NCBI GenBank assembly: GCA_017609885.1
Contig: JAFCDB010000001.1
Span: 6,732-70,731 of the forward strand
Reading direction: 5' to 3'
Length of the DNA: 64,000 bases
Origin: Candidatus Pacearchaeota archaeon
GTDB taxonomy: Archaea > Nanobdellota > Nanobdellia > Pacearchaeales > GW2011-AR1
Shown piece after piece: positions 3,774 through 58,768 of this stretch. The position numbers were made by a program, and so were the translations under genes. The notes below the pieces were generated by a model. That model was not told the DNA's origin and ran no database searches. It saw nothing but the letters and a program-made list of their open reading frames with translations. Position 1 is the stretch's first letter, and each line of letters opens with the position of its first letter.

Positions 3774-4901
3774 ATGGTGAGTGTAAATCCTTGGAAAGTT
3801 AAAGGCGAAGTTGATTATAACAAACTGGTAAAGGAGTTTGGACTGACGCCGATGAAAAAACTTCCGGAGATTTTTAATAAAAATTTACTTTTTAGAAGAA
3901 AAATTGTTTTTGCAAATCGAGATATTGCCCGTATTTTAGATGCAGTAAAAAATAAAAAGAAATTTGTTGTTATGACTGGATTGATGCCGACAGGCAAATT
4001 GCATATTGGACATCTCTTATTAATTAATCAATTAATATTCTGGCAAAAGTTAGGAGCAAAACTTTACATTGCTGTTGCAGACCTTGAGGCGTACAATGCG
4101 CGCGGACAGAGCTTGGAAGAAAGCAGAAAAATTGCAATTGAACAATATCTTTTGAATTATATTGCGTTAGGACTTTCACCAAAAAACTGCGATTTTTATT
4201 TTCAGAGCGAAAGATCTAAAGATGCTGAAAAATCAAATGCTTACTATAGGCTTGCTTCAAATTTTTCGCGATATGCAACATTCAATGAGTTTAAAGCTGT
4301 TTACGGCGAAATTTCTCCAGGCAAAATGAATGCCTCACTTATTCAAGCTGCAGATATGTTCCACCCCCAGCTCCCAGAATTTGAAGGAAAACCCCTCCCT
4401 GTTTTAGTTCCTGTAGGAATTGACCAAGACCCGCACTTGAGAATTGCAAGAGACATAAGCCAAAGATACAAAGATTACAAATTCATTCAGCTAAGTTCAA
4501 CTTATCATCTTTTTTCTCCTGGTTTGAAAGGAGACAAAATGTCTGCTTCAGATTCTTCTTCATATATTTCTTTGACAGACACACCAGCAGAAATAAAAAG
4601 AAAAATAAATAAATATGCATTTTCAGGTGGGGGAGAAACAACAGAAGAGCATAGGAAAAAAGGGGGAAATCCAGATGTTGATGTTTCATTTCAGTATTTG
4701 AAAATGTTTTTTGAGGAAGATGATTTGAAATTGGCAGAGATTGAGAAAGATTATCGAAGTGGAAAGTTGTTAACTGGAGAATTAAAGAAAATCTTAATTG
4801 AGAAGATAAATTCTTTTTTGAAAGTGCATCAAGGAAAACGCGAGAAGGCGCGAAAGATGGTGGATAAATTTGTTTACAAAGATGTTACTACTTCTAAATA
4901 A
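3774..4901 (+). CDS. trpS: Tryptophanyl-tRNA synthetase (archaeal/eukaryotic type class I)
   Basis: HIGH motif in TGLMPTGKLHIGHLL; KMSAS motif (KMSASDSSS), which distinguishes TrpRS from TyrRS (KMSKS); 375 aa. Confidence 0.85.
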   Translation: MVSVNPWKVKGEVDYNKLVKEFGLTPMKKLPEIFNKNLLFRRKIVFANRDIARILDAVKNKKKFVVMTGLMPTGKLHIGHLLLINQLIFWQKLGAKLYIAVADLEAYNARGQSLEESRKIAIEQYLLNYIALGLSPKNCDFYFQSERSKDAEKSNAYYRLASNFSRYATFNEFKAVYGEISPGKMNASLIQAADMFHPQLPEFEGKPLPVLVPVGIDQDPHLRIARDISQRYKDYKFIQLSSTYHLFSPGLKGDKMSASDSSSYISLTDTPAEIKRKINKYAFSGGGETTEEHRKKGGNPDVDVSFQYLKMFFEEDDLKLAEIEKDYRSGKLLTGELKKILIEKINSFLKVHQGKREKARKMVDKFVYKDVTTSK

Positions 4902-8550: not shown

Positions 8551-8564
8551 GAGTTACTCAAAAA

Positions 8565-8775
8565 AATTTGCTCCTGAATCGACTTTCAGCACGATTCTCC
8601 GCAGAAGAATTCCGCAAATCTTTGGAACAATATTTACTATGATTATAATTTCATTACTCAACTTTTAGAAAACCAAATCTGCAAATCGTTATTGAATTTT
8701 TAGCATTAACTTATTTCCCCAAAATTTTTCCCGAACTCTGAAGGAAAAATTCTTCCTCTTCCCCCAATTCCTACC
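8565..8775. repeat. Intergenic repeat element, copy A (about 75-80% identical to 43495-43775)
   Basis: Shared blocks AATTTGCTCC, TGGAACAATATTTA, AAATCTGCAAATC, TTACTTATTTCCC.AAAATTTTT, AAAAATTCTTCC in the same order in both copies. Confidence 0.5.
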
Positions 8776-15251: not shown

Positions 15252-16695
15252 AAGCGAAACTTTAAATAATTCCCCAACCATCTATCTAAGTAAAATGGCA
15301 GAGGAAATTAAAACAATTATAGAAGATGTTCTGAAAAAGACAAATAAAGGGGATTGGCCTGCTCAAAGCCACGAGCTTGTCTACGACTCTTCTTCAGAAA
15401 CTCTTGAACCTGTGTATTTCTGGGTGTTGGATATGGCAAATAGTTTATTTGGTGGCAAGGTTGAAAAACTTGTTGATAATTTTACTTCAAGTCCTGGAAG
15501 CGGACATTTTGCAGAATTTGGGCAGAGAAAATCAATCATGCAAAAAAATGTCACAGAATCAATGGGGACGATAAACACTGTTTTGAAAAGTATTATCAAC
15601 TTAATTTATGACTTGAAAGATTTTGAAATTCGATTAGGACATTATGATGCTGTAAAATCTGAAAATAAGGAAGAAAAAGAAGCTGGGTTGTTGGCATTGA
15701 AACAAATTTGGATGGATAATGTTGATATTAAGCGAGGAAGAGGTTCTATAAACATGATGGCTCAGGATTTGAATTTTGTTACTCTCAGAGATGGATTTAT
15801 GTATGCTAATTCGATAAAAGATATTGATGAGATGGATTTGAATGACAGGGTGAAACGGGTTTTGAAGCCGCGGCTTGATGAATTTTTGTATTGGAAAGAT
15901 TCAAGTGAGGCAGAGTTGAGAAAAAGATTTGCAATTGAGAAAAATTATCTTCGTTCTCAGGTAAATTCTTTGCAATTATATTCACGGTGGGTAAAACCTT
16001 ACTTAAAATCAGCATCTGAACTTGAAATGGAAGAGCAGGGAAGAAATCCAGAACTTGTAAAAACATTTAATACGATTCTTTTGCAATTAACCTTAATTGG
16101 AAAAGATGAATTTGATGTTAAGGAAGCAACAAGAACAGCTGAACTTCCAACAGAGCTGAAAATTCCAAAAAGAAAATACTACTCAGTTGTTTTAATTGAT
16201 TTTAGATTTCGGGGAATTCCAATAAAACAAGGGCAGCACTTTCTTTTAGGAGGAAAAGCAACTGTTAATTTTAATGCTTATGCTTTAAATGAAGAAGAAC
16301 TAAAAATTCTTGAGCAGAATTTGAAAAAATCAGATGTCGAAGATGCGTTGAAATTAATTGAAGGTGCAACAACAGAAAGCTTGGATGAATTGAAAAAGGA
16401 TTTGGACCATTACTTAGAAGATGATAAGGAAGCAAATGAAGAGGAGAAAAAGAAAAAAAAGTCTGAGGACACAAATCCATTCAGCGCTTTGTTTGGTTCT
16501 TTATTTAAGAAAAAAGAAGAGAAAGATAAAAAAGAAGAGAAAGAAATTGAGCTGAAGAAAATTAAAAAAGATAATTATGCTGAGAGGCTTGTCAGGGCGC
16601 TTGCAGCTGCAGATGCTGCTAATAAATGCTTCACAATTTATGATGTTTACAAAAAAGCGCATGGCATGGCATCGCATGACAATCCTTTTGAATAA
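15223..16695 (+). CDS. Large hypothetical protein with K/E-rich C-terminal region
   Basis: 490-aa ORF; no recognisable catalytic motif; C-terminal EEKKKKKSEDTNPFSALFGSLFKKKEEKDKKEEKEIELKK. Confidence 0.45.
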   Translation: MKSLQQPNIKSETLNNSPTIYLSKMAEEIKTIIEDVLKKTNKGDWPAQSHELVYDSSSETLEPVYFWVLDMANSLFGGKVEKLVDNFTSSPGSGHFAEFGQRKSIMQKNVTESMGTINTVLKSIINLIYDLKDFEIRLGHYDAVKSENKEEKEAGLLALKQIWMDNVDIKRGRGSINMMAQDLNFVTLRDGFMYANSIKDIDEMDLNDRVKRVLKPRLDEFLYWKDSSEAELRKRFAIEKNYLRSQVNSLQLYSRWVKPYLKSASELEMEEQGRNPELVKTFNTILLQLTLIGKDEFDVKEATRTAELPTELKIPKRKYYSVVLIDFRFRGIPIKQGQHFLLGGKATVNFNAYALNEEELKILEQNLKKSDVEDALKLIEGATTESLDELKKDLDHYLEDDKEANEEEKKKKKSEDTNPFSALFGSLFKKKEEKDKKEEKEIELKKIKKDNYAERLVRALAAADAANKCFTIYDVYKKAHGMASHDNPFE

Positions 16696-41703: not shown

Positions 41704-42270
41704 ATGCCACGAAACCAATTCCAATTTAGAAAACAAAATCAGCTAAAAAAATCAGATAAATCTCTCAAACAAAACTGGGATAAAAAAATAGTAGAACTCT
41801 GCAAAAAAATTAACAAGAGTGAAAATTATTATACAACTTCTTCATGTAGTGGAAGAGTTTTACTTTTGGTGAATTCGAGGGAGAAGCGCGACAATCTTTT
41901 TATAAAAGTTTGGCATGATAAAATTTCATTTGAGAAATTGAAAAAAAGTTTGGAAGAAATTAATTCAGAAGAATTAATTTATTTTAAGCAAGAACCGTGT
42001 ATTATGCATGTTGCTACTGAGAGTTTGGAAGATGCGCAGGAGATTCATGATTTAGGAAAGGAAGCAGGATGGAAGCGGTGCGGGATAATAGCGTCGAGAA
42101 ATAGGTTTGTTGTTGAATTAAATGCAACTGGAAAATTAGAATTTCCAATATTTTATAAAAAAATCTTAGTTAATGACAAATTTTTGAAAATTGTTGTTGA
42201 AGAAGCGAATAAAAAGTTGGAAGATTCGTGGAGTTGTATTGAGAAATTAACTAACACTCTTACCACTTAA
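41704..42270 (+). CDS. taw3: tRNA wybutosine/wyosine biosynthesis methyltransferase Taw3/TYW3
   Basis: TYW3 signature YYTTSSCSGRV; 188 aa. Confidence 0.7.
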   Translation: MPRNQFQFRKQNQLKKSDKSLKQNWDKKIVELCKKINKSENYYTTSSCSGRVLLLVNSREKRDNLFIKVWHDKISFEKLKKSLEEINSEELIYFKQEPCIMHVATESLEDAQEIHDLGKEAGWKRCGIIASRNRFVVELNATGKLEFPIFYKKILVNDKFLKIVVEEANKKLEDSWSCIEKLTNTLTT

Positions 42271-43287
42271 AATCTGGTCCCGCAAATAATGAATCTCCTC
42301 CCGAACTGATTCAGCATCTTCTTTCAACAAATTCTTAAATTCCTCAGGAGTTGCCTTAAACAGCCTCTCAAGATTTTTAAATTTCTTTACAATCTGCGAA
42401 ATAATTGCTTCATCTAAATTTAAATTTGACAAAAACCGATAACCCCGCGTAGAAATATTTTCTTCAACTGGTCCTCCAATCATTAATTTTGCCATTATTT
42501 CTCTATCAACTAAACTATCAAAATTAAATGTTTCAAGAAGAGCCCTGGATTTTTTCAACGGCAAACGGCTGTAGTCTCTCATCACCTCGTCCTGAGTTTT
42601 TTCAACGCCACGTATCAACTCTTTGTATCTAATATTCATAATTGTTCCAATATTTCCCAGCTCGGTAAAATATCTTTTTATCATCTCTGCGATTCGCAAA
42701 ATCATTTCAGATCTTTGCATAAGATTGCAAACATCGCTGATTGTCACAAGATTTGACATTTCTAAAATATCAAGTTTTTCTTTATATTCATTAAATAGTT
42801 CCCTTTGTTTTTCCAAAAGTTGCAAATTACTACTGACTTCTCCGAGAAGTTTTGTTGTATTTTTGAGAAAATATTTTGCGCTTCCAAGATAAAGAGTTGT
42901 TTTTATTTTTCTTTCTGAAACTGCAATGACAAAAGTGTTTGCTTGCTTTGCGATTCTTTCAGCTGCTCTGTGTCTTGTTCCTGTTTCAATTGAATCGATT
43001 GTATGGTCTGGATTAAGCACAATATTCGCATAGACGATTTTTTTTAAATCAGGTGAAACAACAACAGCGCCATCCATTTTGCAAAGTTCAAATAATTTGT
43101 TGGAGGTAAATTTGCAGTTAACTTTAAATCCTCCTTCGATTAAACTTTGAAGTTCGACACTATCAAAAACTATCAGCGCCCCCATGTTCGCATTCATCAA
43201 ATCATCTACCACAGTTCTCAGCGAATTTCCAGGCGAAACTTTCTTTAAATATTCTGTAAATTTTGATTCTTTTTCTGTCATGAGCAA
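42247..43287 (-). CDS. disA: DisA-like diadenylate cyclase (DAC domain N-terminal, helical linker, HhH-like C-terminus)
   Basis: DAC motifs GALIVFD, DGAVVVSPD, GTRHRAAERIAKQANTFVIAVSE; 346 aa. Confidence 0.7.
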   Translation of the reverse strand: MLMTEKESKFTEYLKKVSPGNSLRTVVDDLMNANMGALIVFDSVELQSLIEGGFKVNCKFTSNKLFELCKMDGAVVVSPDLKKIVYANIVLNPDHTIDSIETGTRHRAAERIAKQANTFVIAVSERKIKTTLYLGSAKYFLKNTTKLLGEVSSNLQLLEKQRELFNEYKEKLDILEMSNLVTISDVCNLMQRSEMILRIAEMIKRYFTELGNIGTIMNIRYKELIRGVEKTQDEVMRDYSRLPLKKSRALLETFNFDSLVDREIMAKLMIGGPVEENISTRGYRFLSNLNLDEAIISQIVKKFKNLERLFKATPEEFKNLLKEDAESVREEIHYLRDQILSGKSVS

Positions 43288-43494
43288 CTAAGAAATGCTT
43301 GGAGTTTAAATGTTTTTGGGTTGATGCTGGATATAATTTTATAAATCCCCTTCTTCACACATTTATATAAAACTAATCCAATTTAAATATTTGCTAGTTG
43401 AATAAAATGGTGGAAGAGATTAGAGAAGTTTTGGTGGAGAAGGGAATTGGAGATGAGAAAATTATTTATGAGAAGTATGGTTAGGGGAGGGGGA

Positions 43495-43775
43495 ATTTGC
43501 TCCCGAATTGGGCTTCGCCACAATTCTCTACGGGAAATACTGCTAATCTCTGGAACAATATTTATTACGATTTAGATTAACTTATTCAGATATATTTTAG
43601 AAAATCAAATCTGCAAATCTTTGAAGAATTTTATGAATTTACTTATTTCCCTAAAATTTTTTTCCTCCTAATCTCGCTCGCCTTGTTTCATCCTCTTTTC
43701 TCTCCTACTAGCGAAATTGCTCGCGAACCCCGAGACAAAAATTCTTCCCCTTCCCTCAAAAATTCATAGTGTTCT
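43495..43775. repeat. Intergenic repeat element, copy B (carries a ~60-nt insertion relative to copy A)
   Basis: See copy A; extra segment CCTCCTAATCTCGCTCGCC...ACTAGCGAAATTGCTCGCGAA is shared with the partial copy at 63902-64000. Confidence 0.5.
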
Positions 43776-43790
43776 AGAAACTCCTGTTAC

Positions 43791-45848
43791 CTAAACACGA
43801 AACTCATCCAGCTTTTTATATTCTTGATTCCTCTTCAAAAATCCATCAATAAATTTCTTATTATTACTTCTGTCAAGAAGTTTTTTAACTGAAAAAGTTT
43901 TTAATCCAAATTTCGCAACATAAGGTGCTAATTTTGCTTTCGATGTAACTTCCTTAGATGTAGATTCTCCAAGCAAAACACAGTTGTCAGCAATTTCTGA
44001 AATTTTCTTTGCATCTGAAAGTCCATTTCCAAGAGAAGTGAAAAGTAATTTGTTATTTTGTTTTTTTGCAACAATATCTCCCGAATTAATTCCGATTCCA
44101 AAATTTATTTTTTGGGTAAACCTTGAATTATGTTCTCTTAATTTGCCTGAAATCTCTTCTGCTAATTTTAATGTATTAAATGAGTTGTTGAAAGTTTTTG
44201 TTATGCTCGGCGTGAAAATTCCAACTATGTAGTTTTCTGTTTTATAGATTTTTCCGTTGTTTTCTGAAATTAAATTCACTGCGTTTTGCAAATCTTCTCC
44301 AGCATTTGATTTTGATTTTTTTATGTCGTCCATGTTTTTTATTTTCAGTGCGAGAATTGAAGATTTTTGCTTTTCACCGTCGATTACAAGAGAGTGGCTT
44401 GCATCTGTGTTTCCTAAAATTTCAGGTTTTGAAGTTTTAGTGTGAGGAGTTATTTTTACAACACCTCCCTCATAAGGCGACTTTTTTTTGAAATTAATTT
44501 TATTTTTTATTCTATTTTTAAAGTTTAATTTTTTTGAAAGTTTTTCAGGTAATATTGATTTTTTGTCTATAACCCTTTTTGATGCAACAAAAACAAAAAT
44601 TCCCAAAATTAAGATTACAAAAAGCCAGGCGAAAAATCCCTTGCTCATCATTTCTAAAGTTGATTTTTTTCCCTTGATTGAAATTGCGCTTCCGGTTAAT
44701 AATGCGCTTCCTTCAATTTCCTGGGTGTCGTCTTTGACTTTTATGTTATATTCTCCGTCAGGAGCTTTGAGTTCGAATTCTAATGATTTTCCAACAGATA
44801 TGTTGATGTCCTTTATTTCAGTGTGGTTTCCAATTGAAATTTCCACAAATTTATCATAGGGCACGTTTCCAATGTTTTTTATTGCGAGAGTGTCATTTAT
44901 CAATTCGAAGATTGCCTCTTTGTTTGACCCGACATAAATTTGCATTTGTTCTGTAATTTCTTTTGATTCTGCACTAAGATTTATATATCCCAAAGGGTTA
45001 TTTTTTTTAACTTTATAAATAGTTGACTCACCTGTTGTTGTTAAGATGTTGAATATTTCTTCTCCTTGAGAATTTGTTAAGATAAATAAAACCTGCTCGC
45101 CTTCGATAGTGTGTTCTGCCTGGTCATAAAGAATTGCTTTGATTTCCAAATCGCCCCCTGCTTTTACTTCCTCTAAACATGAAAGTTCTAAGCTCCTTGG
45201 CTTTTGCAAGATTGTAATTGTGAAATTTCTCAAGCCATTATTTGTTATTTCCTCTTCTTCTTTTTCATATGCAAAAACATTTAATGTATAAACTCCTGAT
45301 GCAAGATTTTCCGGCAGGATTAATTCTCCATTGAATTTGTTTTTTTCAATTGGTGTTATAATTTCTAATTCTGTTTTATCTAATGAAACTTCTGCAAATC
45401 CGGTTACAGTTTCTCTGTTTGGTTTGTTTGTCGTTCCTTCAAATTTAATTGTTGTGTTTGGCTCGAATTCCATTGTATTAAAAGTCATGTCAATGCCAAT
45501 ATCGTCTGCAATTTTAAAGTCCATGCTTTTTTTTGAGATTTCATTAAAAGTTAAAAGCAGATGGCAGTTGCCGCTCATTCCTCTTAAGAAATTCAGTGTT
45601 AGCGGAAAGACAAGTTCTTTTTTTGTGTCTTTTTCTCCAAAGTGGTTGAAAAACAAAAGTTTTGTTTGGTTGTTGCAGACTAAATCGAGATTTGCCCATC
45701 CTACTTCTCTGTCAGTTCCTATGGTTACTTTAAGTTCTTCGCCGAGAGTGTAAAGGTCGTTTGGCTGCTTTGACAAAAAAACTTCTGCGCTTGCCACAGA
45801 AATTAAAAAAATTGCAATTAGTCCAAATGTCACCAATCTTTTCATCAT
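43791..45848 (-). CDS. Large membrane protein: signal peptide, beta-rich extracellular region, single TM, cytoplasmic domain resembling a degenerate class-III nucleotidyl-cyclase fold
   Basis: 685 aa; TM GFFAWLFVILILGIFVFVA; cytoplasmic SILALKIKNMDD...KIYKTENYIVGIFTP...INFGIGINSGDIVAK...FTSLGNGLSDAKKI follows the CHD beta-alpha pattern (VLFADI..., IGDA.MAVFG, LRIGIHTGPVVAG, IGD.VN.ASRLE) but lacks the metal-binding Asp pair. Confidence 0.4.
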   Translation of the reverse strand: MMKRLVTFGLIAIFLISVASAEVFLSKQPNDLYTLGEELKVTIGTDREVGWANLDLVCNNQTKLLFFNHFGEKDTKKELVFPLTLNFLRGMSGNCHLLLTFNEISKKSMDFKIADDIGIDMTFNTMEFEPNTTIKFEGTTNKPNRETVTGFAEVSLDKTELEIITPIEKNKFNGELILPENLASGVYTLNVFAYEKEEEEITNNGLRNFTITILQKPRSLELSCLEEVKAGGDLEIKAILYDQAEHTIEGEQVLFILTNSQGEEIFNILTTTGESTIYKVKKNNPLGYINLSAESKEITEQMQIYVGSNKEAIFELINDTLAIKNIGNVPYDKFVEISIGNHTEIKDINISVGKSLEFELKAPDGEYNIKVKDDTQEIEGSALLTGSAISIKGKKSTLEMMSKGFFAWLFVILILGIFVFVASKRVIDKKSILPEKLSKKLNFKNRIKNKINFKKKSPYEGGVVKITPHTKTSKPEILGNTDASHSLVIDGEKQKSSILALKIKNMDDIKKSKSNAGEDLQNAVNLISENNGKIYKTENYIVGIFTPSITKTFNNSFNTLKLAEEISGKLREHNSRFTQKINFGIGINSGDIVAKKQNNKLLFTSLGNGLSDAKKISEIADNCVLLGESTSKEVTSKAKLAPYVAKFGLKTFSVKKLLDRSNNKKFIDGFLKRNQEYKKLDEFRV

Positions 45849-45893
45849 ATTATATAGAAAATATAGGGATATTTAAATCTTGTTGCAGGGCAG

Positions 45894-46619
45894 TTAAAGC
45901 CAGCCCATAACCATTGCCAGCCCAAGGGCAAGTAAAATAATTCCTGCGACCAAGTGCATTATCCTAATGTGCCGGTCTTTCCATTGCTGTGCGTTTTCAA
46001 CAGTTGTGTATCCAAAATAAATTAGGAAAGTAATTGCAAGCATTGGCAGGATAAAAATTAAATTGTAGATAAATAAGAAAGGGAAAACATCAAGGATGAT
46101 TTCAAGTTTTTGACTGATATTAAATGCCTGGCTGATTAAACTTCCAAAGATTAAATAAGGGCCTATTGTGCATGGAAGCAGGAAGAGCGTGACAAAAATT
46201 CCTGTTGTGAAAGCACCTTTTACCGAAGTAACTTTCGAAATTATTCTTTTGACTTTTGGACGCAGCATCAGAGGCATTTCAGTTCCGAAAGTTCCTGGGC
46301 TGTATATCAAATAATCTTTAATTCCAAGAAGTCCAAAGAAAATTGCCAAGAATCCAAATCCTTTGTAAAGGTAAGTTGAAATGCTTGTCAAGAGATTATT
46401 TAACCCGCTAAAAATAGTGATGATAATTGTGCCGTAAATTAGATACATGATGAAAACTGCTGAAACAAACGCCAGTCCTGCTTTGAAAACTTTGGATTTT
46501 TTATTGGGATTATAAATCATAATTGAAATTAAAATCATAAATAAAACCGCAAGTGCACATGGATTTACTGAATCTGCAATTGCAAGTCCAATAACTGCAG
46601 GCCAAGTTAGTTCTGTCAT
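45894..46619 (-). CDS. ccdA: Cytochrome-c-biogenesis/DsbD-type transmembrane thiol-disulfide electron transporter (CcdA family)
   Basis: AIADSVNPCALAVLFMIL first conserved Cys helix and later LLPCTIGPYL second Cys; 6+ TM. Confidence 0.7.
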   Translation of the reverse strand: MTELTWPAVIGLAIADSVNPCALAVLFMILISIMIYNPNKKSKVFKAGLAFVSAVFIMYLIYGTIIITIFSGLNNLLTSISTYLYKGFGFLAIFFGLLGIKDYLIYSPGTFGTEMPLMLRPKVKRIISKVTSVKGAFTTGIFVTLFLLPCTIGPYLIFGSLISQAFNISQKLEIILDVFPFLFIYNLIFILPMLAITFLIYFGYTTVENAQQWKDRHIRIMHLVAGIILLALGLAMVMGWL

Positions 46620-46620
46620 T

Positions 46621-46965
46621 TTAGCATCCTGTTAATTCTTTTAATTTATTAATTGTTTGAACGCCGGCGTATTTTTCTCCTTTAATAATCCAAGATGGCG
46701 TGTGAGTTATTTCGTCTTCTAAGCATTTTTGTCCTTCAAATGTGCAGTCAACAATTGTTAAATAATTTATGTTTTCTCCAAACATTTCCTTCTGCCGTTC
46801 ACATGCTGTGCATCCCAACTGCATATACAAAACAGAGTTTTCTCCAATGCAAATTGCGTCTTGCTCGTTTATAGTTCCTTTATCATAGATGAAAACAAAA
46901 TATGCAATTGAAATTAAAATTAATAATATTGCAATGTTAATTATTACTCCTTTTTTTAATTCCAT
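46621..46965 (-). CDS. Membrane-anchored thioredoxin-like protein (CxxC)
   Basis: N-terminal TM, then LGCTACERQKEMF with CxxC; operonic with ccdA (2-nt gap). Confidence 0.55.
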   Translation of the reverse strand: MELKKGVIINIAILLILISIAYFVFIYDKGTINEQDAICIGENSVLYMQLGCTACERQKEMFGENINYLTIVDCTFEGQKCLEDEITHTPSWIIKGEKYAGVQTINKLKELTGC

Positions 46966-53733: not shown

Positions 53734-53778
53734 GTGTATAGTAAGAGTTTTTAAATTTAAAAATCATTGGGTTTTTAT

Positions 53779-53869
53779 GTCCCTGTAGTTCAGTCAGGAT
53801 AGAACATGACCTTGCGGTGAGTTTGCTCGCGAATAGGTCAAGACCGCGGTTCAAATCCGTGCAGGGGCG
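53779..53869 (+). tRNA. tRNA-Arg (anticodon GCG) with a ~17-nt intron in the anticodon loop
   Basis: Hand-folded: acceptor GTCCCTG/CAGGGGC, D-arm GTTC...GAAC, anticodon stem TGACC...GGTCA separated by TTGCGG plus TGAGTTTGCTCGCGAAT(A); T-arm CGCGG-TTCAAAT-CCGTG. Confidence 0.55.
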
Positions 53870-53887
53870 TTTTTGCGGGAGCAAACA

Positions 53888-58579: not shown

Positions 58580-58768
58580 ATGGGAAAAATTGTAAAGAAA
58601 AATGTTGTGAAGAGAAAGCCTGGTCACCTTTACTATGTCGACGGTAAGGGAAATGTTTGCGAGGCTAAGATGGCTCGCGGCGGACGAAAGAAAAAGAAAG
58701 CGGCAAAGAAAAAGCCAGCAAAGAAAAAGCCAGCAAAGAAAAAGCCAGCAAAGAAAAAGAAAAGATAA
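58580..58768 (+). CDS. Small basic protein with (AKKKP)x3 tail; possible nucleoid/RNA-binding protein
   Basis: 62 aa; GGAGG SD 6 nt upstream; tail encoded by a 15-nt tandem DNA repeat (AAAGAAAAAGCCAGC ×3, 58705-58749). Confidence 0.4.
   Translation: MGKIVKKNVVKRKPGHLYYVDGKGNVCEAKMARGGRKKKKAAKKKPAKKKPAKKKPAKKKKR

Follow-up and report, generated by a model that had tools for sequence, protein, structure and literature searches.

A DisA-type diadenylate cyclase gene beside the gene of a putative pseudo-cyclase receptor in a Pacearchaeota archaeon: probably independent neighbours

Introduction

In a 64-kb stretch of one contig of Candidatus Pacearchaeota archaeon (hereafter the window; GC content ~31%), a gene encoding a DisA-type diadenylate cyclase is located directly downstream of a gene encoding a 685-aa membrane protein whose cytoplasmic domain resembles a class III nucleotidyl cyclase. 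This arrangement raises the question of whether the two genes form a signalling unit or are chance neighbours. A preliminary description of this DNA had favoured the former and proposed a "surface-sensing to second-messenger module". Our analysis does not support this proposal: the adjacency occurs in none of 164 homologous loci, it coincides with a synteny break and the genes have their own TATA-like boxes. DisA and the 685-aa receptor are probably functionally independent genes that became neighbours through a lineage-specific rearrangement. The named homologs of both proteins come from metagenome-assembled genomes (MAGs) of Nanoarchaeota, Woesearchaeota and Pacearchaeota and, therefore, the host is a DPANN archaeon.

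Results

Genomic context of the two genes

Both genes are on the minus strand, 503 bp apart:

42247..43287, minus strand: DisA-type diadenylate cyclase gene, open reading frame (ORF) of 346 aa from TTG
43288..43790: 503-bp intergenic gap between DisA and the 685-aa gene, synteny breakpoint
43791..45848, minus strand: gene of the 685-aa type I membrane protein (28 homologs; AlphaFold2 (AF2) full-length model, predicted local distance difference test (pLDDT) 82.7)

The 164 homologous loci comprise 84 pseudo-cyclase loci, namely four long contigs and 80 metagenome loci (49 of these 80 of at least 6 kb) surveyed within a radius of 5 kb, and 80 DisA loci. The metagenome loci of the 685-aa family were found with the 10 closest sequences as query alignment. 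DisA was encoded within 5 kb of the pseudo-cyclase in none of the four long contigs and in none of the 80 metagenome loci and, reciprocally, neither the 685-aa protein nor its cyclase homology domain (CHD) was represented by a homolog in any of the 80 DisA loci. Both genes are present in the assembly GCA_964467035.1, where they are located on separate contigs (3 and 8).

The comparison with the closest relatives of the window DisA (67-69% identity) located a synteny break at this site. In these relatives, a gene encoding a 465/466-aa protein (L007:3095-4495; L009:4565-5962) is followed by a gap of 38-64 bp, DisA and a convergent TYW3 gene. Sequence searches of Pfam, NCBIfam, PADLOC and the PDB with the 465/466-aa protein gave nothing. 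On the TYW3 side, the window is collinear with them (TYW3, 276, 226, 185, PIN):

41704..42270: TYW3/Taw3, convergent with DisA and overlapping its 3′ end

On the other side, the ortholog of the 466-aa gene is found at 15295-16692 (+), beside GlxRS and ~27 kb from DisA, and Rpb7 and S24e are found at 18.1-19.7 kb in inverted orientation. Relative to the 466-aa gene, the block that contains DisA is inverted in the window. This distribution would fit an inversion, one end of which falls within the 503-bp gap. Furthermore, the commonest neighbour of the pseudo-cyclase in metagenomes, a divergent class Ib tRNA synthetase (PF00579; TrpRS or TyrRS; 45 of the 80 loci, L095-L174), is encoded in the window at 3774-4901, i.e. 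~40 kb from the 685-aa gene, which is another sign of genome rearrangement.

The gap and its surroundings contain the following features:

43494..43755: dispersed intergenic repeat, second copy at 8564-8763, + to + (blastn, MAFFT)
43302..43311, minus strand: TATA/BRE-like (BRE, transcription factor B recognition element) ATTTAAACTC box, 21-30 nt upstream of the DisA ATG
45871..45879, minus strand: TATA-like GATTTAAAT box, 23-31 nt upstream of the 685-aa ATG
43737..43762, minus strand: two T5 runs, 29-54 nt past the stop codon of the 685-aa gene

The ATTTAAACTC box is found at the same distance from DisA in the window and in the relatives L007 and L009 despite different upstream genes. Together with the GATTTAAAT box and the T5 runs, it looks like part of separate archaeal promoter and terminator signals for the two genes.

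The repeat (~170-260 nt) matches its second copy in three collinear pieces with 85-95% identity (blastn; mean column identity of 78% with MAFFT), both copies being intergenic and oppositely placed relative to their flanking genes. Rfam gave nothing at E ≤ 1 on the gap (43250-43850), the folding z-scores (-1.05 and -0.90) indicate no folding signal, and neither 90 related loci nor the metagenome collection contained the core 25-mer of the repeat; an RNA or a known element was therefore rejected. The repeat could not be retained either as the recombination substrate of the inversion, since its second copy is at 8.6 kb while the other breakpoint is at 16.7-18.1 kb, and blastn detected no third copy. 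It is a genome-specific dispersed repeat at the junction: the repeat and the gap of about 500 bp mentioned in the preliminary description are real, but the term "element" is not appropriate, as there is no sign of mobility or structure.

The DisA protein

The 346-aa ORF had been considered as DisA-like with a canonical diadenylate cyclase (DAC) domain, which our searches corroborated. Gene callers start it at the ATG of codon 3 (43281), giving the 344 aa of the database form (P0029), and this ATG is likely the actual start. The protein comprises three domains:

42889..43209, minus strand: DAC catalytic domain, residues 27-133 (Pfam PF02457, 3.4e-24)
42484..42867, minus strand: DisA helical linker domain, residues 141-268 (Pfam PF10635, 1.4e-24)
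42250..42441, minus strand: DisA C-terminal helix-hairpin-helix (HhH)-like domain, residues 283-346 (alignment to domain 3 of 3c1y)

The DisA equivalog of NCBIfam (NF010009) matched with 319 bits for a cutoff of 201 (residues 5-341 on model positions 4-353 of 357) whereas the DacZ model gave just 23 bits. The alignment with DisA from Thermotoga maritima (PDB 3c1y; E = 1.2e-56) superimposes the catalytic motifs, and those of the window protein, DGAVVVSPD and GTRHRAAERIA, are intact, without any loss of DGA or RHR. The C-terminal domain differs, with a gap of three residues at GIG relative to 3c1y, deletion of the second G-h-G hairpin and a weak match to Pfam HHH_2 (E = 0.048). The window protein is therefore a predicted full-length member of the DisA family, which shows all the sequence hallmarks of this family except in its C-terminal HhH domain. 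Since this domain is modified, DNA sensing by the window DisA is uncertain.

These deviations were examined in the best 120 clusters of 3302 relatives (word-indexed search, E ≤ 1e-10), which range from 339 to 367 aa in length and from 53 to 100% in identity. Of these 120 closest homologs, 116 lack the second G-h-G hairpin. DGA is retained in 107 of them (DGA[IV] in 103), and the RHR position, RHR in the window protein, is mostly RHK across the DPANN clade. DNA binding may be altered in this clade.

Distribution of DisA in DPANN archaea and its usual neighbour

DisA had been described as unusual in archaea. This holds for the literature consulted, in which DisA is treated as bacterial and DacV-DacZ are listed for archaea (PMC6741144) and in which a 2025 paper reported that dacZ is absent from DPANN and inferred that the messenger is restricted to Euryarchaeota (PMC12699388). 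It does not hold for the databases. Our scan of one genome per species found 53 DPANN-type DisA loci, 52 in records titled archaeal and one in a Patescibacteria record, with bacterial DisA proteins coming next at 31-37% identity; in addition, at least 120 clusters share 53% identity or more with the window protein. Several of the best 120 clusters already carry the NCBI name "DNA integrity scanning diadenylate cyclase DisA" (Nanoarchaeota, Pacearchaeota and unclassified archaeal MAGs). The window DisA is an already-annotated, routine member of a known family. Overall, DisA is frequent in MAGs of Woese-, Pace- and Nanoarchaeota, which conflicts with the view of a DacZ-only messenger restricted to Euryarchaeota (PMC12699388).

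DPANN-type DisA proteins (48-57% identity) were also found in records titled Patescibacteria (L057, JBNMFJ010000005.1), Methanococcoides sp. SA1 and Proteobacteria (P0109, P0128); the Patescibacteria-titled one has a DHH neighbour. Errors in the binning or labelling of DPANN sequences are the likely cause, with transfers as the alternative.

A protein of ~344 aa is encoded directly 3′ of DisA and on the same strand in 47 of the 53 DPANN-type loci, mostly within a few to ~45 bases (loci L012-L061, e.g. L012:6075-7118). It harbours DHH (Pfam, 3.2e-8) and DHHA1 (5.9e-8) domains and weakly resembles RecJ. This arrangement looks like a conserved disA-dhh operon, whose second gene could encode either a RecJ-like nuclease or a DhhP/NrnA-type phosphodiesterase acting on c-di-AMP (cyclic di-AMP)/pApA. 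The partner gene is absent beside DisA in the window and in its closest relatives, and tblastn and hidden Markov models (HMMs) detected none in the 64 kb. The preliminary description had also suggested looking for a c-di-AMP phosphodiesterase or a ydaO riboswitch elsewhere in the genome. Tblastn and purpose-built HMMs found no such phosphodiesterase in the window; as for the riboswitch, besides the lack of any Rfam match in the gap, the scan of the whole window at gathering thresholds revealed only tRNAs.

Topology and ectodomain of the 685-aa protein

The signal peptide, long beta-rich ectodomain, single transmembrane helix and cytoplasmic domain of ~200 aa initially proposed for the 685-aa protein were all recovered by hydropathy and by the full-length AF2 model, which was built on an alignment of 28 sequences:

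44649..45785, minus strand: ectodomain, residues 22-400, about four beta-sandwich, macroglobulin-like domains
44568..44648, minus strand: transmembrane helix, residues 401-427 (AF2 helix; Kyte-Doolittle mean >1.6)
44406..44567, minus strand: disordered Lys-rich juxtamembrane linker, residues 428-481 (pLDDT <50 at residues 428-479)
43878..44405, minus strand: degenerate class III CHD, residues 482-657 (fold, profile, hhalign and residue tables)
43797..43871, minus strand: C-terminal helix, residues 660-684 (AF2; conserved, with near-invariant F666 and F670)

The signal sequence consists of hydrophobic residues 1-21, modelled as an N-terminal helix, and precedes an all-beta region (residues 24-393) of about four sandwiches. 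The 23 residues that follow the transmembrane helix include nine K/R, and seven N-x-S/T sequons are found in the ectodomain versus one in the cytoplasmic part. This topology is that of a type I surface protein.

Foldseek searches with the ectodomain retrieved complement C3/C4/C5, alpha-2-macroglobulin (A2M), TEP1 and CD109 at E~1e-12, with a low global TM-score, as expected for flexible domain arrays. Besides a sub-threshold match of the ectodomain to Pfam MG2 (20 bits), none of the curated models of Pfam and NCBIfam matched the 685-aa protein. Neither the CGEQ thioester motif nor a thioester domain is present. Two cysteines of the first sandwich, Cys58 and Cys95, are near-invariant.

Directly upstream of the 685-aa gene and on the same strand, 45894-46619 (-) encodes a 241-aa multi-pass membrane protein with weak SfLAP/ArsG matches and 46621-46965 (-) a 114-aa transmembrane protein with a CTAC (CxxC) thioredoxin-like motif. 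These two proteins may be a disulfide-handling pair, and the receptor ectodomain has two near-invariant Cys. Their adjacency to the 685-aa gene is not conserved at the other loci.

The cytoplasmic domain: a cyclase fold with lost catalytic residues

The AF2 model of residues 479-685 reached a pLDDT of 87. The top 50 PDB matches of the CHD found by Foldseek are all class III adenylyl cyclase (AC) or guanylyl cyclase (GC) domains (best E = 7.6e-12; TM-scores of 0.63-0.72). A profile of the C-termini of 25 family members, excluding two distant ones (P0027 and P0028), matched the PDB entries 2w01 (5.6e-6) and 6fht (6e-5), and hhalign aligned the degenerate family with this canonical pair over 148 columns (95% probability, E = 3e-8). 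Individually, nine of the 25 members match PF00211 (best 4.4e-6), P0027 and P0028 have precomputed matches to it, and a third member is named "class 3 adenylate cyclase" by the Joint Genome Institute (JGI). The window protein alone does not match PF00211 at E ≤ 10; therefore, the CHD is assigned by homology at the level of the family and of the fold. The resemblance to class III cyclases noticed initially is thus upheld by four independent and concordant lines (annotations of family members, profile searches, fold and hhalign), no unrelated fold having appeared among these matches, and the cytoplasmic domain is a predicted class III CHD.

P0027 possesses all the canonical motifs (FTDIRGF, KFIGDAVMAIF and YTAIGEPVNIAFRL) and aligns with CyaB (3r5g) at 1.6e-27. 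In the degenerate family, LKIKN stands opposite its FTDIRGF. The position of the first metal-binding aspartate (Asp1) corresponds in the window protein to K502 (hhalign) or K504 (MAFFT), hence to a Lys in either alignment; the second aspartate (Asp2) is replaced by N539, the transition-state Asn by S611 and the Arg by K615, whereas the substrate-position residues K536 and T604 are retained. The preliminary description was therefore also right about the missing Asp pair and the pseudo-cyclase.

The same positions were compared across the family, in 25 sequences and then in 144 more (169 in total). A Lys occupies the Asp1 position in 23 of the 25 and 108 of the 144 sequences (131/169) and an Asp in none, and the Lys adjacent to this position is kept in 22/25 and 126/144. 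Asp2 is retained in about half of the family (13/25 in the first set), the transition-state Asn in 1/25 and 20/144, and the Arg position is K or R. The CHD is predicted to be CATALYTICALLY degenerate, and the distribution of the residues argues that their loss is a conserved, selected state rather than decay. Class III cyclases work by two-metal chemistry and, because this chemistry is established, the loss of catalysis can be inferred: the CHD most likely cannot make cyclic AMP (cAMP) or cyclic GMP (cGMP).

The degenerate family and its active relatives

An exhaustive HMM search of 1.84 billion representatives yielded 494 clusters of the degenerate family at E ≤ 1e-30 and 613 at E ≤ 1e-10 (clusters at 50% identity). 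Most members have 640-700 aa with the CHD at about 470-670, i.e. the same architecture as the window protein. The canonical relatives are carried by contigs with ~31% GC and over-long tRNAs and are therefore probably also from DPANN, a group with very few descriptions of class III cyclase signalling in the literature consulted. Downstream of the canonical relatives (P0027 and P0028), on the same strand, is a gene encoding a GAF-SpoIIE phosphatase (L093:4052-8188; L094; L091:6001-9499), and the P0027 locus further encodes a metallo-beta-lactamase hydrolase of the PDEase_II/Apyc1-like type. This locus would be a complete cassette to make, sense and degrade a cyclic nucleoside monophosphate (cNMP). 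No GAF-SpoIIE, PDEase_II or canonical CHD gene was found in the window or at any of the 84 degenerate-family loci. The simplest history would be that an active receptor cyclase lost its catalysis and its cNMP partners while the receptor was retained.

Other features of the window

The archaeal origin of the window is marked by TYW3/Taw3 and by a long tRNA, which is probably an intron-containing archaeal tRNA:

53778-53870, plus strand: tRNA, 93 nt, irregular anticodon loop in ARAGORN (Rfam tRNA, 48.6 bits)

The highest-scoring tandem array of the window is located at 58703-58759 and consists of 3.8 copies of the 15-nt unit GCAAAGAAAAAGCCA with 100% match.

Discussion

The window DisA appears to be a normal member of a widespread DPANN clade, whose DAC domain is predicted to condense two ATP into c-di-AMP. 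The 685-aa protein would belong to a family of single-pass surface receptors, in which a secreted and probably glycosylated array of macroglobulin (MG)-like domains faces outward. The transmembrane helix and the flexible Lys-rich linker would join this ectodomain to a CHD in which a Lys (motif LKIKN) replaces a metal-binding Asp. In such a receptor or adhesin, the CHD is most likely a non-catalytic output domain that serves for dimerisation, as a scaffold or for nucleotide binding. We infer a ligand-binding role for the ectodomain and a non-catalytic signalling role for the CHD. This degenerate family would have arisen from active receptor cyclases of the kind of P0027 and P0028, which share its ectodomain and are still found in cNMP cassettes. 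A lineage-specific rearrangement would have placed these two independent DPANN genes side by side, with DisA apparently under its own promoter.

Several points weigh against this interpretation. The common strand and the spacing of only 503 bp leave room for read-through transcription, and functional coupling does not need gene linkage. The evidence comes from 64 kb of genome, and the loss of catalysis is deduced from sequence. In addition, since K536 and T604 are retained and Asp2 is kept in 13 of 25 members, some nucleotide binding may persist. Going further, LKIKN could define a new kind of archaeal pseudo-enzyme receptor output, in which the Lys would turn the former active site into a pocket that takes up a nucleotide without metal (ATP, a cNMP or even the c-di-AMP made by DisA), so that contacts of the MG-like ectodomain, for example with a host cell surface, would be coupled to the nucleotide signalling state in DPANN; we consider this rather unlikely.

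The degenerate CHD could also be the regulatory half, with a pseudo-site, of a dimer formed with a competent CHD protein encoded elsewhere, as in C1/C2 of mammalian AC or alpha/beta of soluble guanylyl cyclase (sGC). Dimerisation is obligatory for class III cyclases, and asymmetric dimers in which one of the sites is dead are familiar; some of them are among the fold matches (1azs, 3uvj and 9oxn). Furthermore, canonical relatives with the same ectodomain are carried by contigs of similar composition, both an Arg or a Lys at the Arg position and the substrate-position Thr are often retained. However, tblastn and HMMs revealed no second CHD in the 64-kb window, the 84 degenerate-family loci are devoid of any canonical CHD, GAF-SpoIIE or phosphodiesterase gene, and the residue in place of Asp1 is not neutral but a Lys, which reverses the charge; such a pairing is therefore unlikely.

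In the proposed module, a surface cue would be detected by the membrane protein, whose pseudo-cyclase domain would control the DisA encoded beside it or bind c-di-AMP, so that surface sensing would feed into c-di-AMP signalling. The two genes are indeed adjacent and in the same orientation, both domains come from families of nucleotide second-messenger enzymes, and there is a precedent for receptors derived from degenerate nucleotide cyclases, since degenerate GGDEF/EAL proteins serve as receptors after loss of catalysis. Nevertheless, none of the 164 homologous loci shows the adjacency, the site is a synteny break with a 503-bp spacer that includes a repeat, a TATA-like box is conserved near DisA irrespective of the upstream gene, and the conserved partner of DisA in its clade is the DHH/DHHA1 protein rather than a CHD protein. 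A module is therefore quite improbable, and the two genes are better regarded as independent neighbours. It is even less probable that the CHD is still catalytic through non-canonical or migrated residues: although pseudoenzymes are sometimes active in this way (review PMC10211241), about half of the family keeps Asp2 and the JGI named one member as an adenylate cyclase, none of the 169 sequences has an acidic residue at the Asp1 position, all four of Asp1, Asp2, Asn and Arg are missing from the window protein, no acidic residue is conserved nearby (conservation does not extend to the MDD found after LKIKN in the window protein) and the cNMP effector and phosphodiesterase genes of the canonical relatives are missing.

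A role in anti-phage defence (Pycsar or another cyclase-based system) was considered and rejected, as the 685-aa protein, DisA and their neighbours had no PADLOC match at E ≤ 0.01.

What is new in this work is the size and the conservation of an uncharacterised DPANN receptor family that combines an MG-like ectodomain with a putatively inactivated class III cyclase. With active sisters in putative cNMP cassettes, this family offers a natural system for the transition from cyclase to pseudo-enzyme, and its members are candidate host-contact proteins of episymbiotic archaea.

Comparison with known systems

DisA of T. maritima (TM0200, PDB 3c1y) and of Bacillus subtilis have, like the window protein, a DAC domain, a helical linker and a C-terminal domain, and share with it DGA, RHR and the SER motif with the catalytic Ser. 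Unlike them, the window DisA belongs to an archaeal (DPANN) host and it has lost the second G-h-G hairpin; radA was not seen next to it, the usual neighbour in its clade being the DHH/DHHA1 phosphoesterase.

The ectodomain of the 685-aa protein recalls A2M, complement C3 and bacterial ECAM (PDB 4ziq), which are also made of tandem MG-type beta-sandwiches. It differs from them by its number of domains (about four), by the lack of thioester domain, CGEQ and bait region, and by the C-terminal transmembrane anchor and cytoplasmic domain that follow it.

The receptor-type class III cyclases, such as the natriuretic peptide receptor GC-A (PDB 9bcv), have the same layout of ectodomain, transmembrane helix and CHD, with a CHD fold at TM-scores of 0.6-0.7, and the MG-like ectodomain is common to the 685-aa protein and to the uncharacterised receptor cyclases P0027 and P0028. 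Unlike in these cyclases, the Asp pair, Asn and Arg of the 685-aa CHD are replaced by K, N, S and K. The 685-aa protein also has no kinase-homology or HAMP domain, and no cNMP effector or phosphodiesterase gene lies near its own.

The asymmetric class III halves (the pseudo-site of mammalian AC C1/C2 and the sGC alpha/beta halves) likewise keep, under selection, a CHD fold without the full catalytic set. However, to our knowledge, these halves always have a competent partner, encoded by the same protein or operon, whereas none was seen for the window CHD, in which the replacement of Asp1 by Lys is family-wide. Finally, degenerate GGDEF/EAL receptors (for example LapD, PelD and FimX) provide a functional analogy alone: they belong to another fold family and use another messenger, but in both cases a membrane protein would have kept a non-catalytic cyclase-type domain for signalling or binding.

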